A DNA stretch of 45,688 nucleotides from Candidatus Culexmicrobium thermophilum (GTDB lineage Archaea > Thermoproteota > Methanomethylicia > Culexarchaeales > B10-G16): the NCBI GenBank assembly GCA_025061095.1, contig JANZKB010000001.1, positions 67,078-112,765 of the forward strand, read 5' to 3'. This document shows, in pieces, positions 2,681 to 40,270 of this stretch. Positions within the stretch are counted from its first letter, which is position 1. Every line of letters begins with the position of its first letter. Below the pieces are notes generated by a model. The model ran no database searches, was not told where the DNA came from, and saw only the letters and a program-made list of their open reading frames with translations. The position numbers and the translations under genes were made by a program.

Positions 2681-4368
2681 AGGATGTGGTGAAGGTAAGA
2701 GTAAAACTGGAATATTTAAGTGAACTTATAGGAGAGAAGGTTAAAATCAATGAAGCTATAAAACTTCTAAGTTTAATTAGATGTAATGTAATCTCAAAGA
2801 AGAACAATAGACTTTTAGTTGAGGTTCCATATGAAAGAGCAGATTTATACTCAGCGGAGGGAGTTGCAAGAGCATTATTATTTTTGAGAGGAAGAGAGAT
2901 CGACCTTGGCGGAAGAGTGGAAAAAGGCAATTATATGATTTCCGCTAGAGAAGCAGGAAGAGCCGTACAGCCATATATAGGTGGAGCTGTAATAGAGGGG
3001 TGGAGAATCAGCGATGAAAGTAGAATACAGGTTGAACAGTTAATATCTAATCTACAAAAATATTATTGTGGAAAGAGGAGAAGAGCGTTCATAGAAATTC
3101 ATGACTTATCGAATATTCAGTTCCCACTTAGCTATACATTGATGAAAAAGAGGAATATAAAATTCAAACCGCGAAATAAGGGGGAAGAGATGAACGGTGA
3201 GGAGATGCTTAAGGAACTCAGAATGGAGCATTTCTTTGCAGGATTAGAGGAGTATCCGGTGATTATAGATGCTGGAGGCAAATTTATCTCCATGCCGCCT
3301 ATAACAGGTTCCGATGAAACGAAATTACCCTGTGAGAGTAGTGTTCGCCGCTTAAATTTAATGATTATTATGACTGCTGAAACCCGAAAACTTCTCGAAA
3401 GAATATTGAAAGTTGTCTGTGCAAATATGCTTCAAAATGCTGAAAAAGCATTTCAGATGGAAGTGGCCTACAGGGAAAATGTACATTTAACTCCAAATGT
3501 AAATTGCCGGTCGATCAATACAAGTTTCCATGAAATTTTAAAGATTATTGGAAGTAAGATTGATGAAATGATCGTTCTAAATGGTTTACGAAGAGCTGGA
3601 TTTAAAGTAAAAGAACGGGAAGGAGAAATTGAAATAGCTATTCCATTTTATAGAATTGATGCAAGAAATATCTATGATGTTATCGACGATGCTTTGTCGA
3701 TAATGGGATATGATATGTTAATACAAGATGGATTGGAGATTACAGTTTCGAAGATCGGTAGACCGCTAAATAAAGAAGTCATATTAGATAGATTAAGGGA
3801 TTTGATGGTTGGATTCGGTTTCAAAGAGGTTTTAACTAGTCTTTTTTTAAAGGAGAAGAATAGGTTGGGGGGAGAATTAATAGAAATCTCCAATCCATCA
3901 TTGTTAGAATATAGATTTTTACGTAACACTATAATTCCGAATTTATTAGAAGTTTTAAGAGAAAATAGGCATTTAAAGAAGCCTATAAAGATCTTTGAGA
4001 TCGGGGAAACCTATGAGGGAAATCTTCAAAGAGGATATGTTAAAAATTATACTTTAACCGGAGTTTTCATGTATCATAGAACCTGTTTTGAAAGGATACA
4101 TGGAATAGTGGATGTAATCCTTAAACTTTTAAATGTAAAATATAGGCTTAGCAGAATACGTAGCAATTATTTTATGGATGGGAGGGCAGCAGGCATCATC
4201 TATAGAAATAGACGGGTGGGAGTTTTAGGGGAGATAAATCCCGAGATTCTTGTGAAGAATAGATTGACAAGTCCAGTTACAGGGTTTGAAATCCATGTGA
4301 ATAAATTGATGGGGCCGCGGAGATTTGAACTCCGGTCACGGGGACCCATTGGGGGATTAAAGCTCTAA
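2677..4368 (+). CDS. pheT: Archaeal-type phenylalanyl-tRNA synthetase beta-subunit paralog (divergent editing domain)
   Basis: R.DLYSAEGVARAL, PYIGGAVI, SMPPI, YRID....D..DD..GY, SNP....Y..LR..IIPNLLE, KIFEIGE, F.DGRAA, G.LGEI.PE.L. Overlaps pheS by 4 nt (GTGA); the 3' end runs into an antisense tRNA. Confidence 0.88.
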   Translation: MKDVVKVRVKLEYLSELIGEKVKINEAIKLLSLIRCNVISKKNNRLLVEVPYERADLYSAEGVARALLFLRGREIDLGGRVEKGNYMISAREAGRAVQPYIGGAVIEGWRISDESRIQVEQLISNLQKYYCGKRRRAFIEIHDLSNIQFPLSYTLMKKRNIKFKPRNKGEEMNGEEMLKELRMEHFFAGLEEYPVIIDAGGKFISMPPITGSDETKLPCESSVRRLNLMIIMTAETRKLLERILKVVCANMLQNAEKAFQMEVAYRENVHLTPNVNCRSINTSFHEILKIIGSKIDEMIVLNGLRRAGFKVKEREGEIEIAIPFYRIDARNIYDVIDDALSIMGYDMLIQDGLEITVSKIGRPLNKEVILDRLRDLMVGFGFKEVLTSLFLKEKNRLGGELIEISNPSLLEYRFLRNTIIPNLLEVLRENRHLKKPIKIFEIGETYEGNLQRGYVKNYTLTGVFMYHRTCFERIHGIVDVILKLLNVKYRLSRIRSNYFMDGRAAGIIYRNRRVGVLGEINPEILVKNRLTSPVTGFEIHVNKLMGPRRFELRSRGPIGGLKL

Positions 4369-4400
4369 CCCCGCAGCCTTCCAAGCTAGCCTACGGCCCC
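4310..4400 (-). tRNA. tRNA-Pro(UGG) with an 18-nt intron at position 33/34
   Basis: Reverse complement: GGGGCCG acceptor stem, CGGGG/CCCCG anticodon stem, GTTCAAATC T-loop. Removing AGAGCTTTAATCCCCCAA gives the loop TT-TGG-GT. Confidence 0.9.
4349..4366 (-). other. tRNA intron with bulge-helix-bulge (BHB) motif
   Basis: Central helix GGGG(28-31)/CCCC, 3-nt bulges TT|A and AA|T, flanking C27-G35 and GA/TC pairs. Confidence 0.85.
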
Positions 4401-4511
4401 AAATCCGTTAGAAACTAATTAACCGAAATGCTTGAAAAATTTTTCCGCTTATACTGCTAAGATTTTTATGTCTCCAAATAGAAGAGAATTAATGGGGCAT
4501 TAAACTTCACG

Positions 4512-5219
4512 GTGAAATATTTGTCGATTGAAGAGAGAATAGCAAAGAGAATTGCAGGGGAAATAGTGCTTTCAAATAAACCTTGGAAGACTATGCGTAA
4601 GTGGAGGGAGATGTTCAAGATCTCTCAAATCGAAGTTGCATCCAAAATGAACATTTCACCTTCAGTTATAAGTGACTATGAGGGGGGAAGAAGGAAGTCT
4701 CCGGGCTCACGTTTCATAAAGAAATTTGTGGAAACATTGATTGAGATAGATAAGGGGAGGGGTGGACCAACCATTAAGGAATTCGAGAAATTGATTGATC
4801 TCTCCGCAGGGGCAATATTAGATATGAGAGAATACTCTGAGCCTATAAGTGTGAAAGAGCTTTGCAGCATTATTGAAGCCGAGATCATAGCATGTGCACA
4901 TTTAGGGGGTAGGAAGATATTCGGTCACACCGTTGTGGACAGTATAAGATGTATCGAATCCCTATCTGGAATGGAATTTCTAAAACTTATGGGAACCACT
5001 TCGATGAGAGCACTAATCTTCACGAAAGTATCTATAGGAAAATCACCTATGATTGCTGTGAGAGTGCATCCGATAAAACCAGCGGCAGTAATCATGCATG
5101 GTACTGATCATGTTGACCCGTTGGCTATAAGATTGGCGAGAATTGAACAGATACCGTTGGCGCTTTCATATATAGAAAATGTTGATAAGATGATAGATAG
5201 GTTGAGAAGAATAGTTTAG
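4512..5219 (+). CDS. XRE-family HTH transcriptional regulator with C-terminal DRTGG-like domain (COG1709-like)
   Basis: IAGEIVLS.KP..TMRKWRE.F.ISQ.EVA....SPSVISDYEGGRRKSPG, G.TVVDS, RALIFT.VS.GKSPMIAVRV....P..V..HG. Confidence 0.85.
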   Translation: MKYLSIEERIAKRIAGEIVLSNKPWKTMRKWREMFKISQIEVASKMNISPSVISDYEGGRRKSPGSRFIKKFVETLIEIDKGRGGPTIKEFEKLIDLSAGAILDMREYSEPISVKELCSIIEAEIIACAHLGGRKIFGHTVVDSIRCIESLSGMEFLKLMGTTSMRALIFTKVSIGKSPMIAVRVHPIKPAAVIMHGTDHVDPLAIRLARIEQIPLALSYIENVDKMIDRLRRIV

Positions 5220-5270
5220 CTTGAAAGAAAGGATAAAATTTACCTATAATTATAATATTATGATAGGGGA

Positions 5271-7487
5271 GTGTCTACGGATAGAAGAACAACCTCGGAA
5301 AAAATTCTAAATGCAATTTCAAACAGGATAAGAATTGAGATCATTAAAAAATTAAGTAGGGTTGGAGAGTATAGTTTCACCGAACTTATGACGGAGCTGA
5401 ACATGTCGCCGAGAACGGATGCAGGTAAATTTGGGTATCACATAAAGTTATTATCCAATAGCGGTATCATAGCAACAAATCCGAAAAATGGGCGATATAT
5501 ATTAACGGATCTAGGTAAAATGCTTGCAGATTTAATCTGGGAATTAGAGGAGATAACAAGAAAGAAGGAAAAGAAGATACTTGTAAGAACATCGGAGTTA
5601 ATAATGGAGCCTTTTGAACGAAGAAAGATCACGGAAGCTTTAATGCGTGAGGCTAGAGCTCCAAGAAAGATTGCGGAAATCATCGCCAAAGAGGCTGAGG
5701 AAAGAATCTTGCAGAGTAATATAAGTTATCTGACTGCACCTTTAATAAGGGAGTTCGTTAATGCAATATTGCTTGAGCAGGGATTAGAAGATTATAGACA
5801 TAGTTTAACTAGGCTTGGACTACCAGTTTATGATGTTGAAAGGATGCTTGAAATGAGCCGTCCAACTGCCTTGGTTCCGATAGAGATACATGCCAAGGCA
5901 GGTAATGCCGTGATGAGCGAGTATGCACTTATGAAAGAATTGCCCCGCAGAATATCGGAAGCACATATGTCCGGAAGTATACATATAAGTAATATAAGCT
6001 GTTGGGGATTGAAACCAGCTACAATACATCATGATGTTTCATTTTTTCTGAAGCATGGTCTCAAGTTAGGGGAACTTGGATATGTATTTTCAAATAGTAG
6101 AGGAGCAAGAAGCTTCAAGGAGGCTTTAGATATAATTTTGAGACTAGCCTATATTATGCATAGCAGCATCTCGGTTGGACAGGTGGTAGACGATATAAAT
6201 GTGGTTTTAGCTCCATTTATAAGGAACATGAAATATGATGAAATAAAGAGGGAGATAAAGGAACAGTTGATACGAATAAACCAGTTATTCTCCTATGAGG
6301 GAAAACTTTTACCTGTCGCTTTTGGAATGAGCATAAAGGATGAAAGCGAATATTTTGAAGAGGAATTAAGTCTTTTCAGAGCGTTCATGGAAGTTATGTG
6401 TGAAGGAGATCATTTGGGCAGACCTTTCCTGACGCCGCTTCCCATAATCAAATTGAAAGAAAAAGATCTCGATAAATATGAGGAGGAGGTTCAGCTGCTT
6501 TGCAAGTTGATATCCAAATGGTCGACACCATACATAATCAATTTGGATTGGCAAACCAATATGGCGGTAAGCTACTGTTGGGATCTTTCAAGGCTATCTA
6601 AAGGGGAGGGAGATGTTAATAGGTTGAAGCGAACCGGACAGTTAGACAGCGTTTTAATAAATCTTCCGAGAATAGCTTTAGAGGCAAATGGAAATGATGA
6701 AATTTTCTTTTCTAAATTGAATGATGCTATAAGCATAAGTATTGAAGCGTTAAGGGAGAAGATGAGGATTTTAAAGAAGAGGATGAACAATGGGCTTCTA
6801 GCTTTGCTCACAATGAAGGCTGGAGATGACCCCTACTATAATTTGGATGATGCTTATGGAAATATTGGGTATGTAGGTTTGTCTGAAGCAGTTAAGATTC
6901 ATACAGGGGAGGAAATGACGGAAGATGATGATGCTTTAAGATTTGCTGAAAAGATAGTTAATTATATGGTGAGAAAAACCTCTAAAAGAAGAATAAAAGT
7001 GAAGGTTAGCGGAATATCAGTGGAGGATCCTGGTAGAAGACTTTTGAAAACGGATATTGCCAGATTCGGCATTAGAAGTTTGCAGGAGGAGCTTGGCAGA
7101 AATCTGAATAAATACACTTCAGGAACCAATGTTCCCTACGAATTAAAGATACCGTTGAAAACAAGAATAAATATTGAGAGTAAATTTCAAAGAATGACTT
7201 TGGGTGGACATGGACTTAACATCTTCCTTAAAAATCCAATTCCCGAGCCAAATTACCTATTCAAAGTTTTATCGGAGCTTATTGAGAGTAAAAAGTTAGG
7301 GGCATTCACATTTTCAAAGGACTTCACATATTGTAGGAAATGTGGAAGCATGAGTGACGGATTATATGATAAATGTCCAAAATGTGGAAGATCAATTAAC
7401 AATATAGTTAACTACGTTAAGGAGGTGAACATTTATCAACCCGTCAACATTATTGAAGCAAGATACAGAAATAAATATATTATATGA
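5271..7487 (+). CDS. nrdD: ArsR-type wHTH + ATP-cone + class III ribonucleotide reductase (NrdD)-like fusion, apparently catalytically inactive
   Basis: N-terminal RIEIIKKL..YSFTELM..GKFGYHIKLL..Y.LTDLG; ATP cone VRTS..EPFERRKI..LTAPLIREFVNAILLE; TRLGLPVYDV, INLPRIA, GYVGLSE and CxxC..CPxC retained. No RxxGY glycyl-radical loop. Confidence 0.85.
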   Translation: MSTDRRTTSEKILNAISNRIRIEIIKKLSRVGEYSFTELMTELNMSPRTDAGKFGYHIKLLSNSGIIATNPKNGRYILTDLGKMLADLIWELEEITRKKEKKILVRTSELIMEPFERRKITEALMREARAPRKIAEIIAKEAEERILQSNISYLTAPLIREFVNAILLEQGLEDYRHSLTRLGLPVYDVERMLEMSRPTALVPIEIHAKAGNAVMSEYALMKELPRRISEAHMSGSIHISNISCWGLKPATIHHDVSFFLKHGLKLGELGYVFSNSRGARSFKEALDIILRLAYIMHSSISVGQVVDDINVVLAPFIRNMKYDEIKREIKEQLIRINQLFSYEGKLLPVAFGMSIKDESEYFEEELSLFRAFMEVMCEGDHLGRPFLTPLPIIKLKEKDLDKYEEEVQLLCKLISKWSTPYIINLDWQTNMAVSYCWDLSRLSKGEGDVNRLKRTGQLDSVLINLPRIALEANGNDEIFFSKLNDAISISIEALREKMRILKKRMNNGLLALLTMKAGDDPYYNLDDAYGNIGYVGLSEAVKIHTGEEMTEDDDALRFAEKIVNYMVRKTSKRRIKVKVSGISVEDPGRRLLKTDIARFGIRSLQEELGRNLNKYTSGTNVPYELKIPLKTRINIESKFQRMTLGGHGLNIFLKNPIPEPNYLFKVLSELIESKKLGAFTFSKDFTYCRKCGSMSDGLYDKCPKCGRSINNIVNYVKEVNIYQPVNIIEARYRNKYII

Positions 7488-7493
7488 GCAAGT

Positions 7494-8435
<942 letters not shown>

Positions 8436-8502: not shown

Positions 8503-8988
8503 TTGAAGGAAATGTTGGACCTAAAAGAAAAAGAATTAAAGGTACAAAAAATTAAGAATGGAACTGTAATCGACCATATTGCCGCTGGATATGCTTTAAG
8601 CGTACTAAGAATTCTGGGAATAACTGGTAAAGAAGGAATTACAGTTAGTGTAGTAATGAATGTTCCAAGCGAAAAATTAGGGAAAAAAGACATAGTCAAA
8701 GTGGAAGGCAGAGAATTGAAGAAAGAGGAGGTGAATAAGATAGCATTAGTCGCGCCGAAAGCCACAATAAATATAATAAGAAACTACAAAATAATAAGAA
8801 AAGACAGAATACGGTTACCCAATGAAATTGAAGGGATCATATCATGTATAAATCCAAAATGCATAACTAAAGGTGAAAGAGAACCGATAAAACCAAAATT
8901 CACAGTAATATCAGATAAGCCGATAAGGCTTCGATGCAAGTATTGCGGCACAATACTTGAAATAGACGACATAGAAAAACAACTTTAA
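8503..8988 (+). CDS. pyrI: Aspartate carbamoyltransferase regulatory subunit
   Basis: I.NGTVIDHI, NVPS.KLGKKDIVKVE, C.NP.CIT and CKYC zinc site. Likely start is the ATG at 8512. Confidence 0.96.
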   Translation: MKEMLDLKEKELKVQKIKNGTVIDHIAAGYALSVLRILGITGKEGITVSVVMNVPSEKLGKKDIVKVEGRELKKEEVNKIALVAPKATINIIRNYKIIRKDRIRLPNEIEGIISCINPKCITKGEREPIKPKFTVISDKPIRLRCKYCGTILEIDDIEKQL

Positions 8989-15389: not shown

Positions 15390-18300
15390 ATGGAGCTTAC
15401 TGGAGGGGAAATATCAGATTATTTTAAGCGGATAAAGAGAGAAGTTGAAAAAATATATGAAGTAGCGTGCCAAGCCAAACTGGGAGCATTCGATCCCAGT
15501 GACACTCCAGAAATTTTTCTTGCAAATGATTTAGCAGAAAGAGTGGAGGGGTTATTGAGGCAATATGGGATTTTTAAAATTGCTGATAGAATTCGAGAAT
15601 TAAATGAAAAGAATAGTAGAGAAGTGGTTGCCCTAAAAATAGCTGAGGAGATTGTCTATGGAAGATATGGGAATTTTTCGGAGGAGAAGCGGGCGGAGAT
15701 AGCTATAAGGGCAGCATTAGCAATATTGACTGAAGGAATAACAGCAGCACCTTTACAGGGAATAGATAGAGTGAAGATTAAGAGAAATCCAGATGGAAGC
15801 AAATATTTGGCAGTTTATTATGCTGGGCCGATAAGATCTGCAGGGGGAACCGAACAGGCACTAACAGTTTTGGTTGGAGATTATGTTAGACAACTACTGC
15901 ACTTAGACAAGTATAAGCCGACAGAGGAGGAAGTTAAACGATATATTGAAGAGATAAGGCTATATGAGAGAAATGTAGGTAGATTTCAATACCACAATAC
16001 AGATAGGGAGATTGAAAGAGCAGTTAAGAGGATACCTATAGAAGTTACAGGTGTACCGACAACCCAGATCGAAGTGAGTATTCATAGGGATTTGCCGAGA
16101 ATAGAAACTAATAAGTTGAGGGGCGGTGCATGCAGGGTTATAAATGATGGAGTAATAGGTAAGGCAAAAAAATTGATGAAGATAGCTGAAGATGTAGGAA
16201 TCGACGGTTGGGATTGGTTGATGGAGCTTTCCAAGAGCAGTGTAAAGGAAGAGGAAAGTGTAAAAGTAAAGCCAAGCGAAAAGTATTTGGAAGATATTGT
16301 GGCTGGAAGACCCATTTTTGCACATCCATCTAGAACTGGCGGTTTCAGACTCAGATATGGTAGAAGTAGGAATACTGGTTTAGCGGCTATTGGACTTAAT
16401 CCCGCAACAATGCTGATTTTAGGAGAATTCCTCGCGATAGGAACTCAGGTTAGAACTGAAAGGCCAGGTAAGAGCAGCATTATTATGCCTGTAACTTCAA
16501 TAGAGGGGCCTATTGTGAAATTGGAGGATGAAAGTGTAATTCAGGTTAACTCGTTGATTGAGGCTCAGAAAATACTGGATAAAATTAAGGAGATATTGTT
16601 TTTAGGGGATATTCTCATTGCTTATGGAGAATTCTTAGAGAATAATCATCCCTTGCTGCCCTCAGGATATGTGGAGGAATGGTGGGTTCAGGAGGTTCTG
16701 AAAGCTTTAAAAGAAAAATATGAAGGGGATTTAAAGAAATTTGGTGAGAAGACTGGAATTTCAGAGTTCAGATTGAGGGAGTTTATCTTCAACTATGTTG
16801 AAAGTAAGCCTAAAGCTTCGGAAGCCATAAAGATTTCTGAAGAGTTAGAAGTTCCATTGCACCCTAGATATACTTATTATTGGAATGGTATAAGTGCAGG
16901 TGATATTAAAATTCTTGCTGACTGGATTAGGGAGCAGAATGGGATAGATGTAGATAATAATGGAACATTCGTTAAAAAACCATATGATCATAGGGTGAAG
17001 AGAATACTGGAGGATTTATGGATAACACATAAATTAGACAAGGATAGACTGTATCTCTGGATAGATAAGGAAGATCTGAAGATTTTGGAGCGCTGTATAG
17101 CTGGATTTAAGAGCAATCTAGATCTTCCTGAGAATGGTTTAGAAGCAATAAATAGCATTTCTAGAATTAAAATACGGAGTAAAGCACCCACCTTTATAGG
17201 TCTTAGAATGGGGAGGCCTGAAAAAGCTAAGGAGAGAAAGATGAAGCCGCCGGTGCATGTATTATTTCCTGTTGGAATCGAGGGGGGAAGCAGTAGAAAT
17301 GTAATTGAAGCTGCAACATATAAGACTATTAAAGTGGAGAATTCATTGAAAATATGCTTGAAATGTAAGGAGAGAACGTTTTATGAGAAATGTCCAAAAT
17401 GTGGAGAGAGAACTGTTCAACTTAGAAGGTGTCCAAAATGTGGCAGAATAACTTTAGATTTGAAATGTAAGTTTTGTAATGTTAATACGAAACTTGCATT
17501 CGAACAGAATATGAATATCTCTGAAGAGCTAAGGAGAGCATGCGTTAACCTGAATATAACTGCACCGCCAAAGATCGTTAAAGGGGTTAGAGGATTGACA
17601 AATCCGGAGAAGATTCCGGAACCTTTAGAGAAGGGAGTGTTAAGGGCAAGACATAATGTTTACGTCTACAAGGATGGAACCATTAGATTTGATATGACAA
17701 ATGCTCCATTGACTCACTTTACGCCTAGAGAGATCCATACAAGCATTAGAAAACTCATTGAACTTGGATATACCAAGGATATCTATGGAAAGCCTCTTGA
17801 AAATGAAGAGCAACTGATTGAATTGAAAGTTCAAGACATAGTGATACCCCTTGAGGCAGCAGACTATTTAATTAGGGTTGCAAAGTTTGTGGATGAACTT
17901 TTAGTTAGATATTATAAAGTTAAACCTTTCTATCAAGTTAATAGAAGGGAAGATTTAATCGGACATGTAGTGATCGGGATAGCGCCACATACATCGGCAG
18001 GAGTTATAGGGAGGATAATTGGCTTTACTAATGCAAAAGTCTGTTTTGCTCATCCTTATTGGCATGCTGCAAAGAGGAGAAACTGTGATGGAGATGAGGA
18101 TGCTATAATATTGGGGTTGGATGCCTTTCTGAACTTTTCTAAGAAATATCTTCCTGAGAGAAGGGGGGGATTGATGGATGCACCGTTAGTTGTAACGTTA
18201 ATGATAGACCCAAACGAAGTGGATGATGAAGTTTTCAACATGGAAACATGTAACAAATATCCATTAGAATTTTATGAAAAAACCTTGAAATATTGTGATC

Positions 18301-18848
18301 CTAAGAAGCTTAGCGACATCATTGAAAAAGTGGAGAATAGGCTTGGAAGAATGGAACAGTATAGAGGATTAATGTTTACACATTCAACGAAAGCCATAGA
18401 TCTGGGACCTAAAGTATCAATATATAAGAAGATGAGAACTATGGATGAGAAGGTACATGCACAGATGAGATTAGCAGACAAAATAAGGGCTGTAGACAAA
18501 AAGGATGTTGCGCAAAGATTATTGATACATCATTTCCTACCGGATTTAATAGGAAATTTAAGGGCATTCACCACGCAAAGTATGAGATGTACAAAATGTG
18601 GCAGAAAATATGATAGGCCGCCTTTATCGGGTAGATGTAGGGAGTGCGGTGGCAAATTAATTTTAACCGTACACAAGAAGAACATAGAGAAGTATATGAG
18701 ATTTGCAAAGACGCTAATTCAAAAATATAAGTTAGGGGTTTACTATAGGCAACGCTTAGATTTAATAGAGAAAGAATTAAATTTGCTATTTGAGAAGGAT
18801 GAGGAAGGTAAACAATCAAAAATAATCGATTTTTGGAAGAAGATGTGA
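15390..18848 (+). CDS. polC: DNA polymerase D large subunit (DP2), no intein
   Basis: YAGPIRSAGGT, GGFRLRYGRSRNTG, RMGRPEKAK.RKM.PP, KDGTIRFD, HAAKRRNCDGDED catalytic motif, C-terminal CxxC pairs. Confidence 0.98.
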   Translation: MELTGGEISDYFKRIKREVEKIYEVACQAKLGAFDPSDTPEIFLANDLAERVEGLLRQYGIFKIADRIRELNEKNSREVVALKIAEEIVYGRYGNFSEEKRAEIAIRAALAILTEGITAAPLQGIDRVKIKRNPDGSKYLAVYYAGPIRSAGGTEQALTVLVGDYVRQLLHLDKYKPTEEEVKRYIEEIRLYERNVGRFQYHNTDREIERAVKRIPIEVTGVPTTQIEVSIHRDLPRIETNKLRGGACRVINDGVIGKAKKLMKIAEDVGIDGWDWLMELSKSSVKEEESVKVKPSEKYLEDIVAGRPIFAHPSRTGGFRLRYGRSRNTGLAAIGLNPATMLILGEFLAIGTQVRTERPGKSSIIMPVTSIEGPIVKLEDESVIQVNSLIEAQKILDKIKEILFLGDILIAYGEFLENNHPLLPSGYVEEWWVQEVLKALKEKYEGDLKKFGEKTGISEFRLREFIFNYVESKPKASEAIKISEELEVPLHPRYTYYWNGISAGDIKILADWIREQNGIDVDNNGTFVKKPYDHRVKRILEDLWITHKLDKDRLYLWIDKEDLKILERCIAGFKSNLDLPENGLEAINSISRIKIRSKAPTFIGLRMGRPEKAKERKMKPPVHVLFPVGIEGGSSRNVIEAATYKTIKVENSLKICLKCKERTFYEKCPKCGERTVQLRRCPKCGRITLDLKCKFCNVNTKLAFEQNMNISEELRRACVNLNITAPPKIVKGVRGLTNPEKIPEPLEKGVLRARHNVYVYKDGTIRFDMTNAPLTHFTPREIHTSIRKLIELGYTKDIYGKPLENEEQLIELKVQDIVIPLEAADYLIRVAKFVDELLVRYYKVKPFYQVNRREDLIGHVVIGIAPHTSAGVIGRIIGFTNAKVCFAHPYWHAAKRRNCDGDEDAIILGLDAFLNFSKKYLPERRGGLMDAPLVVTLMIDPNEVDDEVFNMETCNKYPLEFYEKTLKYCDPKKLSDIIEKVENRLGRMEQYRGLMFTHSTKAIDLGPKVSIYKKMRTMDEKVHAQMRLADKIRAVDKKDVAQRLLIHHFLPDLIGNLRAFTTQSMRCTKCGRKYDRPPLSGRCRECGGKLILTVHKKNIEKYMRFAKTLIQKYKLGVYYRQRLDLIEKELNLLFEKDEEGKQSKIIDFWKKM

Positions 18849-19120
18849 AGTTTATGGAGAGGAATTATGAGGCATTAGCTATATTGAGGAGAATTAAAAA
18901 TACGAGGAAAGGGATTGAGATACGTAGCAAAATAATAAGGACGCTCAGGCATCGACTGGCCACGATATCGGAGCTTTCAAAATTGGTTAACAGAAGCTAT
19001 TCAACGATAAGATATCATGTAAAGAACATGGAGAAAGAAGGCATTGTCATGAGATTTAATAATAAGTGGAGGCTTACAGGAAAGGGACAACAGAGTATGG
19101 AGGCCTTTTTATTGAAATAG
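18833..19120 (+). CDS. Small ArsR/HTH_20-like winged-helix protein
   Basis: RSKII..L....TISELS....SYSTIRYH...MEKEGIV...W.LTG.GQ. Start may be the ATG at 18854. Confidence 0.75.
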   Translation: MEEDVKFMERNYEALAILRRIKNTRKGIEIRSKIIRTLRHRLATISELSKLVNRSYSTIRYHVKNMEKEGIVMRFNNKWRLTGKGQQSMEAFLLK

Positions 19121-19984
19121 AGCTTTAAGGAGATCTCTGTCGTTGATCATACCTATTAATTCACCTTTTGCATCTAGAACTGGAAGTTGATCTATATTGT
19201 AGAGTTTCATTTTCTTCGCGCAAAGATTGATTGGGGTCTGTTCAACCACTGTAATCACCTTTTTCACCATGATTTCATTTACGGGTTTTTCGGGCAGTGT
19301 AAGTTCCTTGCTACTTATATATAGAACGGTTACTGAATCCCAATTCCAATCTTGACCTTCAGTGGCCGCTCTAATGGAAGAAGTATGCTCTTTTACTATA
19401 ATCTCTGCAAATGATATAATATCTGATATTGATACTATTCCAGCCAATTTACCTTGAGAATTGATCACTGGAAGAGCCTGCATCTTCGATAATTGCATGA
19501 TCTTATAGGTTGCAGGTAAAGGCGTCTTCTCCCATACTGCAGTAATTTTTCTTTCAACTAGATCTCTTATCGGCTGGGTAAGTTGACGATTAATAGCTAT
19601 CACTTTATGTACAATATCAGCAACTGTGATTATACCTACGAGTTCACCATTCAAGACTACAGGCAATCTTCTGATATCATTTTTTAGAAAAATTTTTGCA
19701 GCATCAATTACATCTGCTTCAGGATTTATGGTTATGGGATTCCTGGTCATTAGAAGAGCAATTTGATCTTCTGAAGGGTTGTTCATCAAGTCCGTTCTAG
19801 TTATTATTCCAATAACCCTTCTCGTTCCTTTTTTCACAACTGGAAGCCCCATAACTTTATGTTTTAACATCAATTGTAGAACATCTTTTCTCGTTCCAGG
19901 AACTTCTGCAAAGATAACATTAGTTGACATTATATTCTTCACTTTCAAATTGTTCAACCTCCAAAATAAATTATAAAAAGCCAT
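19109..19984 (-). CDS. CBS-domain protein (two Bateman modules)
   Basis: Four CBS repeats: LPVV..GIITRTDL, RRLPVV..GIITVADI, LPVI..GIVSISDI, QLPVL..GMINDRDLL. Confidence 0.9.
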   Translation of the reverse strand: MAFYNLFWRLNNLKVKNIMSTNVIFAEVPGTRKDVLQLMLKHKVMGLPVVKKGTRRVIGIITRTDLMNNPSEDQIALLMTRNPITINPEADVIDAAKIFLKNDIRRLPVVLNGELVGIITVADIVHKVIAINRQLTQPIRDLVERKITAVWEKTPLPATYKIMQLSKMQALPVINSQGKLAGIVSISDIISFAEIIVKEHTSSIRAATEGQDWNWDSVTVLYISSKELTLPEKPVNEIMVKKVITVVEQTPINLCAKKMKLYNIDQLPVLDAKGELIGMINDRDLLKALFQ

Positions 19985-20027
19985 TTAAACATACTGTCTT
20001 GGGAAATATTTATTTTTTCCTAATTAT

Positions 20028-20067
20028 ACCTTTATAGAGTTAAAAAGTACACCTTTATAGAGTTAAA
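20028..20067. repeat. Tandem 17-bp direct repeat ACCTTTATAGAGTTAAA (period 23 bp)
   Basis: Exact copies at 20028-20044 and 20051-20067, between the MazG stop and the CBS gene start. Confidence 0.9.
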
Positions 20068-20070
20068 GGA

Positions 20071-20367
20071 TTATCTCATCGGACATGTGCACGGAGAATT
20101 TCCGCAACGCGGACATTTATGATCATATTTAGAGAGAAAAGCGTTTTCCACATCTATGTTTAGAATATTTGCCAATGATAAAAACCATGCTAAAACATCT
20201 GCGAATTCACTCACCATCAACTCATGATCCCTGCTTTTTATGGCATTTGCAAGCTCACCTACTTCTTCGACAAACCACATAAAGGTTTTTTCCACACCTC
20301 TTATTCGATCTCTTTCATAGTAGATGTCTTTAAGCATCATCTGTAGATTTTTAAGGGAATATGCCAT
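20071..20367 (-). CDS. MazG-like nucleotide pyrophosphohydrolase with C-terminal Cys cluster
   Basis: W..EEVGELA.A, EFADVLAW..SLAN, KY...CPRCG..PC.C. Confidence 0.88.
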   Translation of the reverse strand: MAYSLKNLQMMLKDIYYERDRIRGVEKTFMWFVEEVGELANAIKSRDHELMVSEFADVLAWFLSLANILNIDVENAFLSKYDHKCPRCGNSPCTCPMR

Positions 20368-35096: not shown

Positions 35097-35444
35097 GGGG
35101 CATGTGGGCGTAGCTCACCTTCTGTTTCTGCGGGATTCAGCTAAGCGGCCTACCCGGCCTCATGCGGTCCTCATAGGCCATACTTGGCCTTACCCCCATA
35201 GGCTGGCCGTTGCATCCATTCTCCCAGCCTCGTCGACGGGTTATCTCGATGCCCATTGCTGGGCATCTTCTCGGCCTAGAAGCCTCAGCCGCCTCCTCCT
35301 CATCCAGCTGGGAGAGGTCTCGTTTCTATGCCAGAGCCAGGGCTCTCGCCCTGCCCCTCACGGGGCTATGGCTCCGCATGGGGGTGAGCTTCCTCAGGCA
35401 TCCCGTTTCCGAAGATGCCCGAAGCCCGCTCGCCCACTTGCCCC
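35097..35444 (-). ncRNA. rnpB: RNase P RNA (archaeal type A)
   Basis: P1 GGGGCA.GTGGGCG/CGCCCAC.TGCCCC; P4 GAGGAAGCTCACC with ACAGAAGGTGAGCTA; P6 CATGCGG/CCGCATG; P8 and P9 hairpins; AGAAACG and TGCAACGG conserved regions. Confidence 0.93.
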
Positions 35445-35466
35445 AAATAATCCTCCTAAAAGTTTC

Positions 35467-35482
35467 AATAAAAATTTTCTTA
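35467..35482 (-). promoter_or_regulatory. Putative BRE/TATA for rnpB
   Basis: AAGAAAA-TTTTTATT about 25 nt upstream of the RNase P RNA 5' end. Confidence 0.5.
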
Positions 35483-35486
35483 AACT

Positions 35487-35523
35487 GCCATGCACAGGCC
35501 ATGAATTTTCGCCTGGATGTGGT
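35487..35523 (-). other. 3' arm of the 23S rRNA processing stem with BHB
   Basis: Pairs with 38609-38645; central helix TCGC/GCGA, bulges TCA and AAA. Confidence 0.9.
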
Positions 35524-35526
35524 TGT

Positions 35527-38606
<3,080 letters not shown>

Positions 38607-38608
38607 TT

Positions 38609-38645
38609 ACCACACCCAGTGAGCGATTCACGGCCTGTGCATGGC
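38609..38645 (-). other. 5' arm of the 23S rRNA processing stem with BHB
   Basis: GCCATGCACAGGCCGTGAA-TCGC-TCA-CTGGGTGTGGT complementary to 35487-35523. Confidence 0.9.
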
Positions 38646-38712
38646 GATCATAAGAGTAAAACACTCTTCTCGCCCTTTATCTGGAGGCTAAGCCTCCAGA
38701 CTGCATCTCACG

Positions 38713-38754
38713 AAGCCTGAAGGAAGCCCAAATCCTTTCCGTGGCTCCCCGCAG
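38713..38754 (-). other. 3' arm of the 16S rRNA processing stem with BHB
   Basis: Pairs with 40295-40337; central helix CGTG/CACG, bulges AGT and GAA. Confidence 0.9.
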
Positions 38755-38768
38755 CAATTGATATTTTA

Positions 38769-40270
<1,502 letters not shown>

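Follow-up and report, generated by a model that had tools for sequence, protein, structure and literature searches.

A catalytically eroded NrdD paralogue with an ArsR-type winged helix: a candidate nucleotide-sensing regulator of ribonucleotide reductase genes in archaea

The stretch of DNA analysed here (the window) comprises 45,688 nucleotides of Candidatus Culexmicrobium thermophilum (contig JANZKB010000001.1, positions 67,078 to 112,765) and carries a gene resembling nrdD, the gene for class III ribonucleotide reductase (RNR). Judged by alignment, the encoded protein lacks the features that define a catalytic NrdD. It belongs to a family of dead NrdD paralogues in which an ArsR/SmtB-type winged helix-turn-helix (wHTH) domain precedes an ATP-cone and an NrdD body. 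We propose that the family is an RNR-derived, nucleotide-sensing transcription regulator of RNR genes, and an archaeal analogue of bacterial NrdR, with DNA binding and nucleotide binding both predicted; the probability of this reading is estimated at about 0.65. Because relatives of the gene sit beside working reductase genes, the window protein probably controls genes for DNA building blocks.

The gene is a single open reading frame (ORF) of 738 codons with a GTG start (Table 1). Pfam analysis placed DUF7347 on residues 11–87 (28.8 bits, cut-off 27.6) and the HTH_5/ArsR profile of ArsR/SmtB wHTH domains on residues 20–66 (25.9 bits, cut-off 22). These were followed by the ATP-cone (PF03477) on residues 112–175, with 29.3 bits against a gathering score of 25.8 and coverage of profile positions 10–75 only, and by NRDD, including the barrel and the zinc ribbon, on residues 207–736 (272.8 bits). 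An earlier note, made from the letters of the window, had described a wHTH (about residues 1–95), an ATP-cone and an NrdD body with a CxxC..CxxC zinc site, and this architecture was borne out by Pfam and by alignment. The score against the curated NCBIfam NrdD equivalog TIGR02487 was 233.8 bits and lay under the cut-off of 326.35. In the PDB, the body matched the NrdD entries 8p23 (P. copri) and 4coi and 4u3e (T. maritima). A profile built from 20 family N-termini matched the HlyU, CadC, CzrA and ArsR structures (best E-value 3.5e-4), with E-values from 3.5e-4 to 0.02 for the first three. The presumed recognition helix of the wHTH is DAGKFGYHIKLL, in which G52, F54 and H57 are invariant in the family alignments; Pfam lists the wHTH of the family only as DUF7347.

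The catalytic positions of the window protein were assigned from sequence alignments to the solved NrdDs of P. copri and T. maritima. For the P. copri enzyme (PcNrdD), Gly711 is described as the radical site, Cys416 as the radical initiator and Cys171 as the second cysteine of the mechanism (on strand beta-1), with an HxHD motif (157–160) that recognises the substrate triphosphate and an NxN flap over the substrate (PMC11226230). All five features, that is, the glycine, the thiyl cysteine, the beta-1 cysteine, the HxHD motif and the NxN flap, are missing in the window protein. The YMRIVGYLVPV segment of T. maritima aligns with YVKEVNIYQPV, which places N720 at the glycine column and leaves KEVNIY where R-x-x-G-Y is expected; the earlier note had located this glycine-free loop, YVKEVNIY, exactly. 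Its coordinates were equally exact for HISNI (residues 238–242) and PAT (249–251), which stand in place of HIHDL and PNC; in the alignment, IHIHD..sltC of P. copri pairs with IHISN..kpat. The MGCR motif had been called unrecognisable (SYCWDL, residues 434–439), and the P. copri finger loop tmGCRtrv, the site of the thiyl cysteine, indeed falls opposite a gap. The cysteine of this remnant, C436, is replaced by glycine in the close relatives P0004–P0009. Sequence alignment to active NrdDs thus found no glycine or cysteine at the radical positions. The catalytic-site columns vary freely among close relatives.

A score under the equivalog cut-off could also be expected of a decaying pseudogene or an annotation artefact, and the chance of either is negligible. 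The 738-residue frame is intact both in the window and in the contigs of four other metagenome runs that cover it, with zero indels. Among 40 listed strain differences (a further 7 lie outside the list), 29 were synonymous and 11 were non-synonymous. Furthermore, full-length homologues are known in hundreds of species.

A word-index protein search with the window protein returned 480 matches. The best 120 of these were nearly all 710–780 residues long with DUF7347, ATP-cone and NRDD, and the best matches came from Methanomethylicia, Bathyarchaeia, Nitrososphaeria and Asgard groups. An exhaustive search gave 2132 representatives at E ≤ 0.001, of which 358 reached E ≤ 1e-30. The named entries of the family are labelled 'anaerobic ribonucleoside-triphosphate reductase', which agrees with the statement in the earlier note that similar fusions in other TACK lineages are annotated simply as NrdD.

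For the conservation analysis, 224 sequences of 560–830 residues were aligned, with longer intein-bearing sequences and fragments left out; 171 carried the wHTH signature and were counted as the family, and 11 were clear true NrdDs. The second histidine of HxHD, the beta-1 cysteine and the NxN flap were present in 11/11 true NrdDs and in 2, 0 and 5, respectively, of the 171 family members. At the glycine column, all 11 true NrdDs carried glycine, whereas the family showed alanine in 63, glycine in 37 and asparagine in 19 of its members. The tyrosine that follows was found in 11/11 true NrdDs, and in the family it was outside the seven commonest residues at its column. The canonical [RK]xxG[YF] pattern occurred in 11/11 true NrdDs and in a single family member (1/171), off position. 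A GC[RK] finger loop was seen in 6/11 true NrdDs, the rest reading CCR, and in 27/171 of the family, in which no member (0/171) combined the glycine motif with the finger-loop cysteine motif. The zinc cysteines were retained in 11/11 true NrdDs and in 163–164 of 171 family members. Erosion is therefore uneven across the family, since 37 members keep the glycine column and 27 keep GC[RK].

Conservation per domain was determined from a 36-sequence alignment as identity relative to the window protein. The ATP-cone was the most conserved region (26/88 columns invariant, mean identity 0.69), followed by the wHTH (7/86 columns, 0.44), the NrdD body (10/490 columns, 0.34) and the C-terminal tail (no invariant column, 0.20); the four zinc cysteines were invariant. 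The wHTH, the cone and the zinc site are therefore under selective protection, and the chemistry is not. The description of the cone as well conserved accordingly holds within the family; measured against canonical cones, the domain is divergent.

A quick maximum-likelihood tree of 49 rows (LG+G4; wHTH columns retained in the alignment) was rooted, by our choice, on two canonical-cone NrdDs. The 30 dead rows formed one clade (SH-aLRT 100) nested among the 19 true NrdDs, with subclades corresponding roughly to Asgard, to Methanomethylicia including the window protein, and to Bathyarchaeia together with ammonia oxidisers. Phylogenetically, the family thus appears as an old, single-origin archaeal clade that branches from within the true NrdDs. 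The alignments support the loss of catalysis, previously suggested for the window gene, in five separate motifs and as a property of the whole clade rather than of the window gene alone.

It is very improbable that the family is still enzymatic, as a divergent reductase or as another nucleotide-modifying enzyme working with different residues. Purifying selection has kept the barrel at full length and the zinc site, and 37/171 members have glycine at the radical column, as such an enzyme might. However, the five motifs were lost together, no member has both radical residues or the beta-1 cysteine, the catalytic columns are free to vary in close relatives, and some copies of aerobic ammonia oxidisers have no glycyl domain. 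In the window genome, which is 93% complete, the best NrdG2 match scored 56.6 bits (cut-off 131) and the best NrdG match 28.1 bits (cut-off 126). The window ORFs scanned against Pfam likewise included no radical-SAM or NrdG gene, as the earlier note had said of the neighbourhood.

The search for a shorter, stand-alone wHTH-cone form gave 37 matches, most of them partial or on short contigs, and demonstrated none. Feature-similar clusters in the ESM Atlas included archaeal proteins of 493–635 residues in which DUF7347 and HTH_5 occur either alone or together with a cone, as well as a 606-residue Nanobdellota cluster that has HTH_24 and NRDD. These clusters are leads only, and hint at more shrunken or independently fused forms.

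The genomic context was analysed in 81 loci, the window and 80 that were fetched, by calling and clustering their ORFs. A full-length true nrdD lay directly downstream of the family gene, on the same strand, in 22/81 loci, all from Bathyarchaeia. These nrdD genes carry the glycyl motif WSRVTGYYQ or YSRVVGYLRPV, score 488–643 bits against NRDD and fall into three different N-terminal types; in 11 of the 22 loci, a glutaredoxin gene of about 102 codons lies between the two. Coordinates showed the same adjacency in 10 further genomes (families f35, f38 and f41). In ammonia oxidisers, the neighbour is a gene of about 885 codons with ATP-cone, Ribonuc_red_lgN and lgC domains. An RNR gene of this kind (PF02867) adjoined the family gene in 16/16 ammonia-oxidiser genomes for which both searches gave coordinates; it followed downstream on the same strand in 15 and was divergent in one. 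In two fetched loci of family f10, a class II RNR (PF02867, with TSCPD in the complete copy) lay directly downstream. The 80 loci showed no nrdJ adjacency: a BLAST search of their ORFs with class II RNR sequences returned cone-level matches to four true nrdDs only. As the neighbours are class III in Bathyarchaeia and class I/II-type in ammonia oxidisers, the dead paralogue appears to travel with whichever RNR the lineage uses.

A 189-position profile of the wHTH and cone was run against 301 sampled Thermoproteota genomes. Matches at E ≤ 1e-10, a threshold that also admits cone-only matches to true NrdDs, were found in 223/301 genomes, and the best match reached E ≤ 1e-40 in at least 189/301 (counted from the table). 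Of the 150 matches listed with coordinates, 149 spanned profile positions ≤7 to ≥187. Full-length matches were also present in 39/151 sampled Asgard genomes. True NrdD (TIGR02487 over cut-off) was detected in 153/301 Thermoproteota genomes, and NrdR (TIGR00244 over cut-off) in 16/301, all of family f19. The link to RNR regulation drawn in the earlier note is supported by the gene context in Bathyarchaeia and ammonia oxidisers and by this near absence of NrdR from the phylum.

All 43 genomes of family f9 carried the fusion. The family is interpreted as aerobic ammonia oxidisers because archaeal amoA was present in 5/5 genomes tested. Among the matches listed, its NrdD matches numbered eight, were weak (about E 1e-21 to 1e-22) and were the fusion itself. 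The ammonia-oxidiser copies are 670–700 residues long and retain both wHTH and cone; some stop directly after the zinc ribbon, with no glycyl domain, and one has not even the ribbon. The fusion thus persists in lineages that have no class III RNR.

The position beside a live reductase could also suit a non-catalytic partner that regulates a working RNR, or other enzymes of replication or nucleotide metabolism, by binding at the protein level, with the wHTH used for protein contacts or localisation rather than for promoter control. In favour of this, true NrdDs form dimers, the dead copy retains the barrel and is often found next to a live nrdD, and pseudoenzyme partners of active paralogues are common. 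We nevertheless consider such a role quite unlikely: the family was kept in ammonia oxidisers and in other lineages without a true NrdD to pair with, and its wHTH shows the ArsR recognition-helix pattern with invariant residues. Moreover, the ammonia-oxidiser neighbour is a class I/II-type enzyme, for which a different dimer interface is described (PMC9531940).

The pyrimidine genes provide a second type of neighbour. In the window, as had been noted, the gene abuts pyrB and pyrI; pyrB is convergent, and its near edge lies 6 nt past the family stop codon. pyrB was adjacent in 27/81 loci, the window included, and pyrI in 19/81, which might suggest a nucleotide-responsive regulator mainly of pyrBI, or of a wider replication and nucleotide regulon, instead of RNR. 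In one locus (L098, G018:C7, 8755–11633), pyrB is even divergent from the family gene, with a spacer of 137 nt. In the window and most other loci, however, the two genes are convergent and so share no promoter. In addition, pyrBI is embedded in conserved housekeeping synteny (NAC, PUA, PAN, Trm56, TFE, A-ATPase and a mevalonate thiolase/HMGCS/DUF35 set). Adjacency to RNR genes recurs with two classes of the enzyme. The pyrB/pyrI adjacency is for these reasons the weaker evidence, and a regulator of this kind is unlikely. The arrangement would fit an ancestral order of regulator, glutaredoxin gene (in some cases), nrdD, pyrB and pyrI, as still found in Bathyarchaeia, with the true nrdD moved away or lost in the window lineage and the regulator left abutting pyrB.

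Under the proposed role as a regulator of RNR genes, the family would have kept the ATP-cone, the zinc ribbon and the barrel, which in true NrdDs is the scaffold of the dimer. The wHTH would bind an operator in or close to the promoters that drive RNR genes and the family gene itself. The cone would bind ATP versus dATP, and relic allosteric sites of the RNR body may also bind nucleotide. Binding is predicted to change how the protein oligomerises or where the wHTH lies and thereby to set promoter occupancy, so that RNR transcription would follow the pool of (deoxy)ribonucleoside triphosphates. The protein would then work like bacterial NrdR while binding DNA through an unrelated domain. The likely targets in Ca. 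C. thermophilum would be the class II (B12-type) RNR gene, whose two parts lie at the ends of different contigs, and a class III locus, should the missing 7% of the assembly contain one; the family gene's own promoter is a probable target and pyrBI a possible one. A broader version is doubtful, in which the family would be the main transcriptional governor of deoxyribonucleoside triphosphate (dNTP) supply across TACK and Asgard archaea, predating their split. Its cone would sense ATP/dATP and its fossil body would bind dNTPs at the old specificity site, so that a single protein would read the entire (d)NTP pool, beyond ATP and dATP, and translate its balance into the occupancy of promoters at the RNR gene, its own gene and perhaps pyrimidine genes.

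The DNA ahead of the family gene was examined for candidate operators. The window has there a 25-nt near-palindrome (CCTAT..ATAGG; Table 1) that is self-complementary at 20/25 positions. Nine such 25-nt stretches occur in the 45.7-kb window, the near-palindrome was not conserved in the closest relatives by eye, and, likewise by eye, no upstream element was common to the window and these relatives; it is a lead only as a candidate operator. In Bathyarchaeia, a 16-nt element with a TTTAA-TTTT-TTAAA core (≤2 mismatches) occurred 30 times in 986 kb, and 24 of the 30 occurrences lay 7–46 nt upstream of the family gene and one upstream of a true nrdD. At ≤1 mismatch, five Bathyarchaeia genomes had the element at the family promoter and at two other sites, which adjoin an ADP-ribosylglycohydrolase gene and a hypothetical gene. 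It may be an auto-operator overlapping the TATA region, or a very conserved promoter. In six ammonia-oxidiser loci, GATC was found 53 times in 3778 bp of spacers flanking the family gene versus 25 times in 8304 bp of other spacers (about 4.7-fold). In 5/5 genera, an inverted TGATC..GATCA pair at or beside the family gene immediately preceded a TATA-like box. The pattern TGATC-N14-19-GATCA was tried as a definition of a regulon and rejected as too loose.

Five ammonia-oxidiser loci (L092 and L094–L097) have, about 300 nt upstream, a conserved ORF of about 55–60 codons with two CxxC pairs. In L097, the same upstream stretch contains tandem GATC-bearing repeat copies.

Several results weigh against a role in RNR regulation. 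The competence of the cone to bind nucleotides is the weakest step of this reading, as judged from its sequence. Its N-terminal strand reads VRTS in the window protein, canonical ATP-cones read V-x-K-R, and the domain passes the Pfam cut-off narrowly and without the K-R pair. Neither the cone region alone nor the family profile matched a solved ATP-cone among the PDB sequences. The VRTS-type cone is also present in true archaeal NrdDs. The wHTH scores are modest (25.9–28.8 bits; best PDB E-value 3.5e-4), and the residual glycine (37/171) and GC[RK] (27/171) are at odds with a uniform loss of catalysis. The context is silent in the lineage of the window: no RNR neighbour was found in the window genome, in five same-order relatives or in 13 Methanomethylicales loci. 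At the promoters, the 16-nt element had no RNR site in the five genomes at ≤1 mismatch, and TGATC-N14-19-GATCA gave 11–20 hits in five ammonia-oxidiser genomes against 4–17 for the control, genome-wide barely more. No motif common to the family and RNR promoters was found. Finally, family f19 carries NrdR in addition to the wHTH-cone-dead-NrdD fusion, so the two are not strictly complementary.

In f19 genomes, the bacterial-type NrdR gene lies beside a true nrdD (for example, G148:C2:113579-116100). These genomes offer a natural test of whether NrdR and the fusion are redundant.

The closest parallel to the proposed regulator is NrdR, whose gene is described as often lying beside RNR genes, as occurring with any RNR class and as probably autoregulated (PMC9110341). 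The fusion resembles NrdR in joining a DNA-binding module to an ATP-cone, in the frequent position of its gene by RNR genes of any class and in its probable autoregulation. It differs in having an ArsR-type wHTH in place of the N-terminal zinc ribbon, a VRTS-type cone and a complete dead RNR body some 500 residues long. On sequence criteria, the window protein is not a member of NrdR: it has no N-terminal zinc ribbon, and a TIGR00244 search of the window genome gave no match. By analogy, it may work like NrdR. The repositioning of domains by the cones of true NrdDs, as described in PMC11226230, offers a parallel for the proposed control by the cone. With class III NrdD (8p23, 4coi/4u3e), the family shares a homologous ATP-cone, the barrel and the C-terminal zinc ribbon, but it has the extra wHTH and occurs in aerobes and, in the window genome as far as assembled (93%), with no NrdG match over cut-off. 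Its N-terminal 90 residues match the ArsR/SmtB regulators HlyU, CadC and CzrA, including the region of the recognition helix; unlike them, the family has a four-residue insertion before that helix and runs into a cone and RNR body instead of a C-terminal dimerisation helix. PutA, BirA and NadR are enzymes that double as transcription regulators. In these, too, an enzyme fold is the ligand-sensing part of a DNA-binding protein, whereas the present family has an RNR fold that seems to have lost catalysis altogether.

No description of the family was found in full-text literature searches, although the supplementary subclass tables of RNR phylogeny papers might list its sequences. What sets the family apart is the joining of an ArsR-type wHTH to an RNR fossil, akin to the ATP-cone-based RNR regulators. 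The family represents a concrete and widespread candidate for the transcriptional control by which archaea adjust dNTP synthesis to demand, and, as cultured ammonia oxidisers carry it, binding assays are feasible. If the proposal is correct, an essential radical enzyme has been put to new use as a sensor and regulator. Database entries under the name 'anaerobic ribonucleoside-triphosphate reductase', which number in the hundreds, would be misannotated, and such misannotation can make aerobes and other genomes falsely seem to possess class III RNR.

The search for the genome's real RNR, which the earlier note had proposed, led to a class I/II-type gene split over two contig ends, C130 (1–2106) and C30 (1–2131). 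C130 encodes the N-terminal part with a canonical ATP-cone (..VVKRSGELQDFDPERI..), which is in frame upstream of the first ATG/GTG/TTG; the true start of the RNR is therefore unclear or non-canonical. C30 encodes the C-terminal part, ending in a zinc ribbon, and is followed there by a P-loop ORF of 199 codons. In a PF13597 search of the genome, the family gene was the only match. However, the absence of a class III RNR from the organism is unproven, since the genome is 93% complete and 5/5 same-order relatives carry a linked true nrdD-nrdG pair elsewhere in the genome.

Table 1. Positions of the family gene, its domains and motif remnants, and adjoining features in the window.
Feature	Position	Strand	Basis or remark
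Whole ORF: wHTH, ATP-cone, dead NrdD body and zinc ribbon	5271..7487	+	ORF call, Pfam, NCBIfam
ArsR/SmtB-type wHTH (DUF7347), residues 11–95	5301..5555	+	Pfam, family profile against PDB
ATP-cone-like domain and linker LTRLGLPVYDV, residues 103–190	5577..5840	+	Pfam ATP-cone; most conserved part of the protein
Class III RNR (NrdD) barrel homologue, residues 207–680, catalytically eroded	5889..7310	+	Pfam NRDD; PDB 8p23, 4coi, 4u3e
Remnant of the HxHD substrate-triphosphate motif, HISN, residues 238–241	5982..5993	+	Alignments
Position of the beta-1 radical-mechanism cysteine (PcNrdD Cys171), T251	6021..6023	+	Alignments
Finger-loop (thiyl cysteine) remnant SYCWDLSRL, residues 434–442	6570..6596	+	Alignments; (M)GCR or CCR in true enzymes
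Zinc ribbon CRKC..CPKC (C688, C691, C702, C705), kept	7332..7385	+	Family alignments
Glycyl-radical loop remnant YVKEVNIY, residues 715–722, N720 at the Gly position	7413..7436	+	Alignments
25-nt near-palindrome CCTAT..ATAGG	5243..5267	.	Ends 3 nt before the start codon, in the 51-nt intergenic gap
pyrB	7494..8414	-	Convergent with the family gene
pyrI	8503..8988	+	

Upstream of the family gene, on the same strand and at a distance of 51 nt, lies an HTH_3 (XRE-type) gene of 235 codons (4512–5219, +), which may be co-transcribed with it. The HTH_3 cluster recurs in 18/81 loci, either directly upstream or with mevalonate-pathway genes in between. ARAGORN reported a 94-nt 'tRNA-???' at 4308–4401 (-), overlapping the 3' end of the PheRS beta gene; Rfam at gathering score gave no tRNA at this position. 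Another nucleotide- and replication-related neighbourhood lies at 15390–20367 of the window. It comprises the gene for the PolD large subunit DP2 followed by an overlapping ArsR-type wHTH gene of 95 codons and, on the opposite strand, a four-CBS-domain protein and a MazG-type nucleotide pyrophosphohydrolase. The 16S-23S rRNA operon (35100–40270, -) has a G+C content of about 61–63% versus about 37% for the genome, which suggests a thermophile, and its 23S gene is directly followed by an RNase P RNA.

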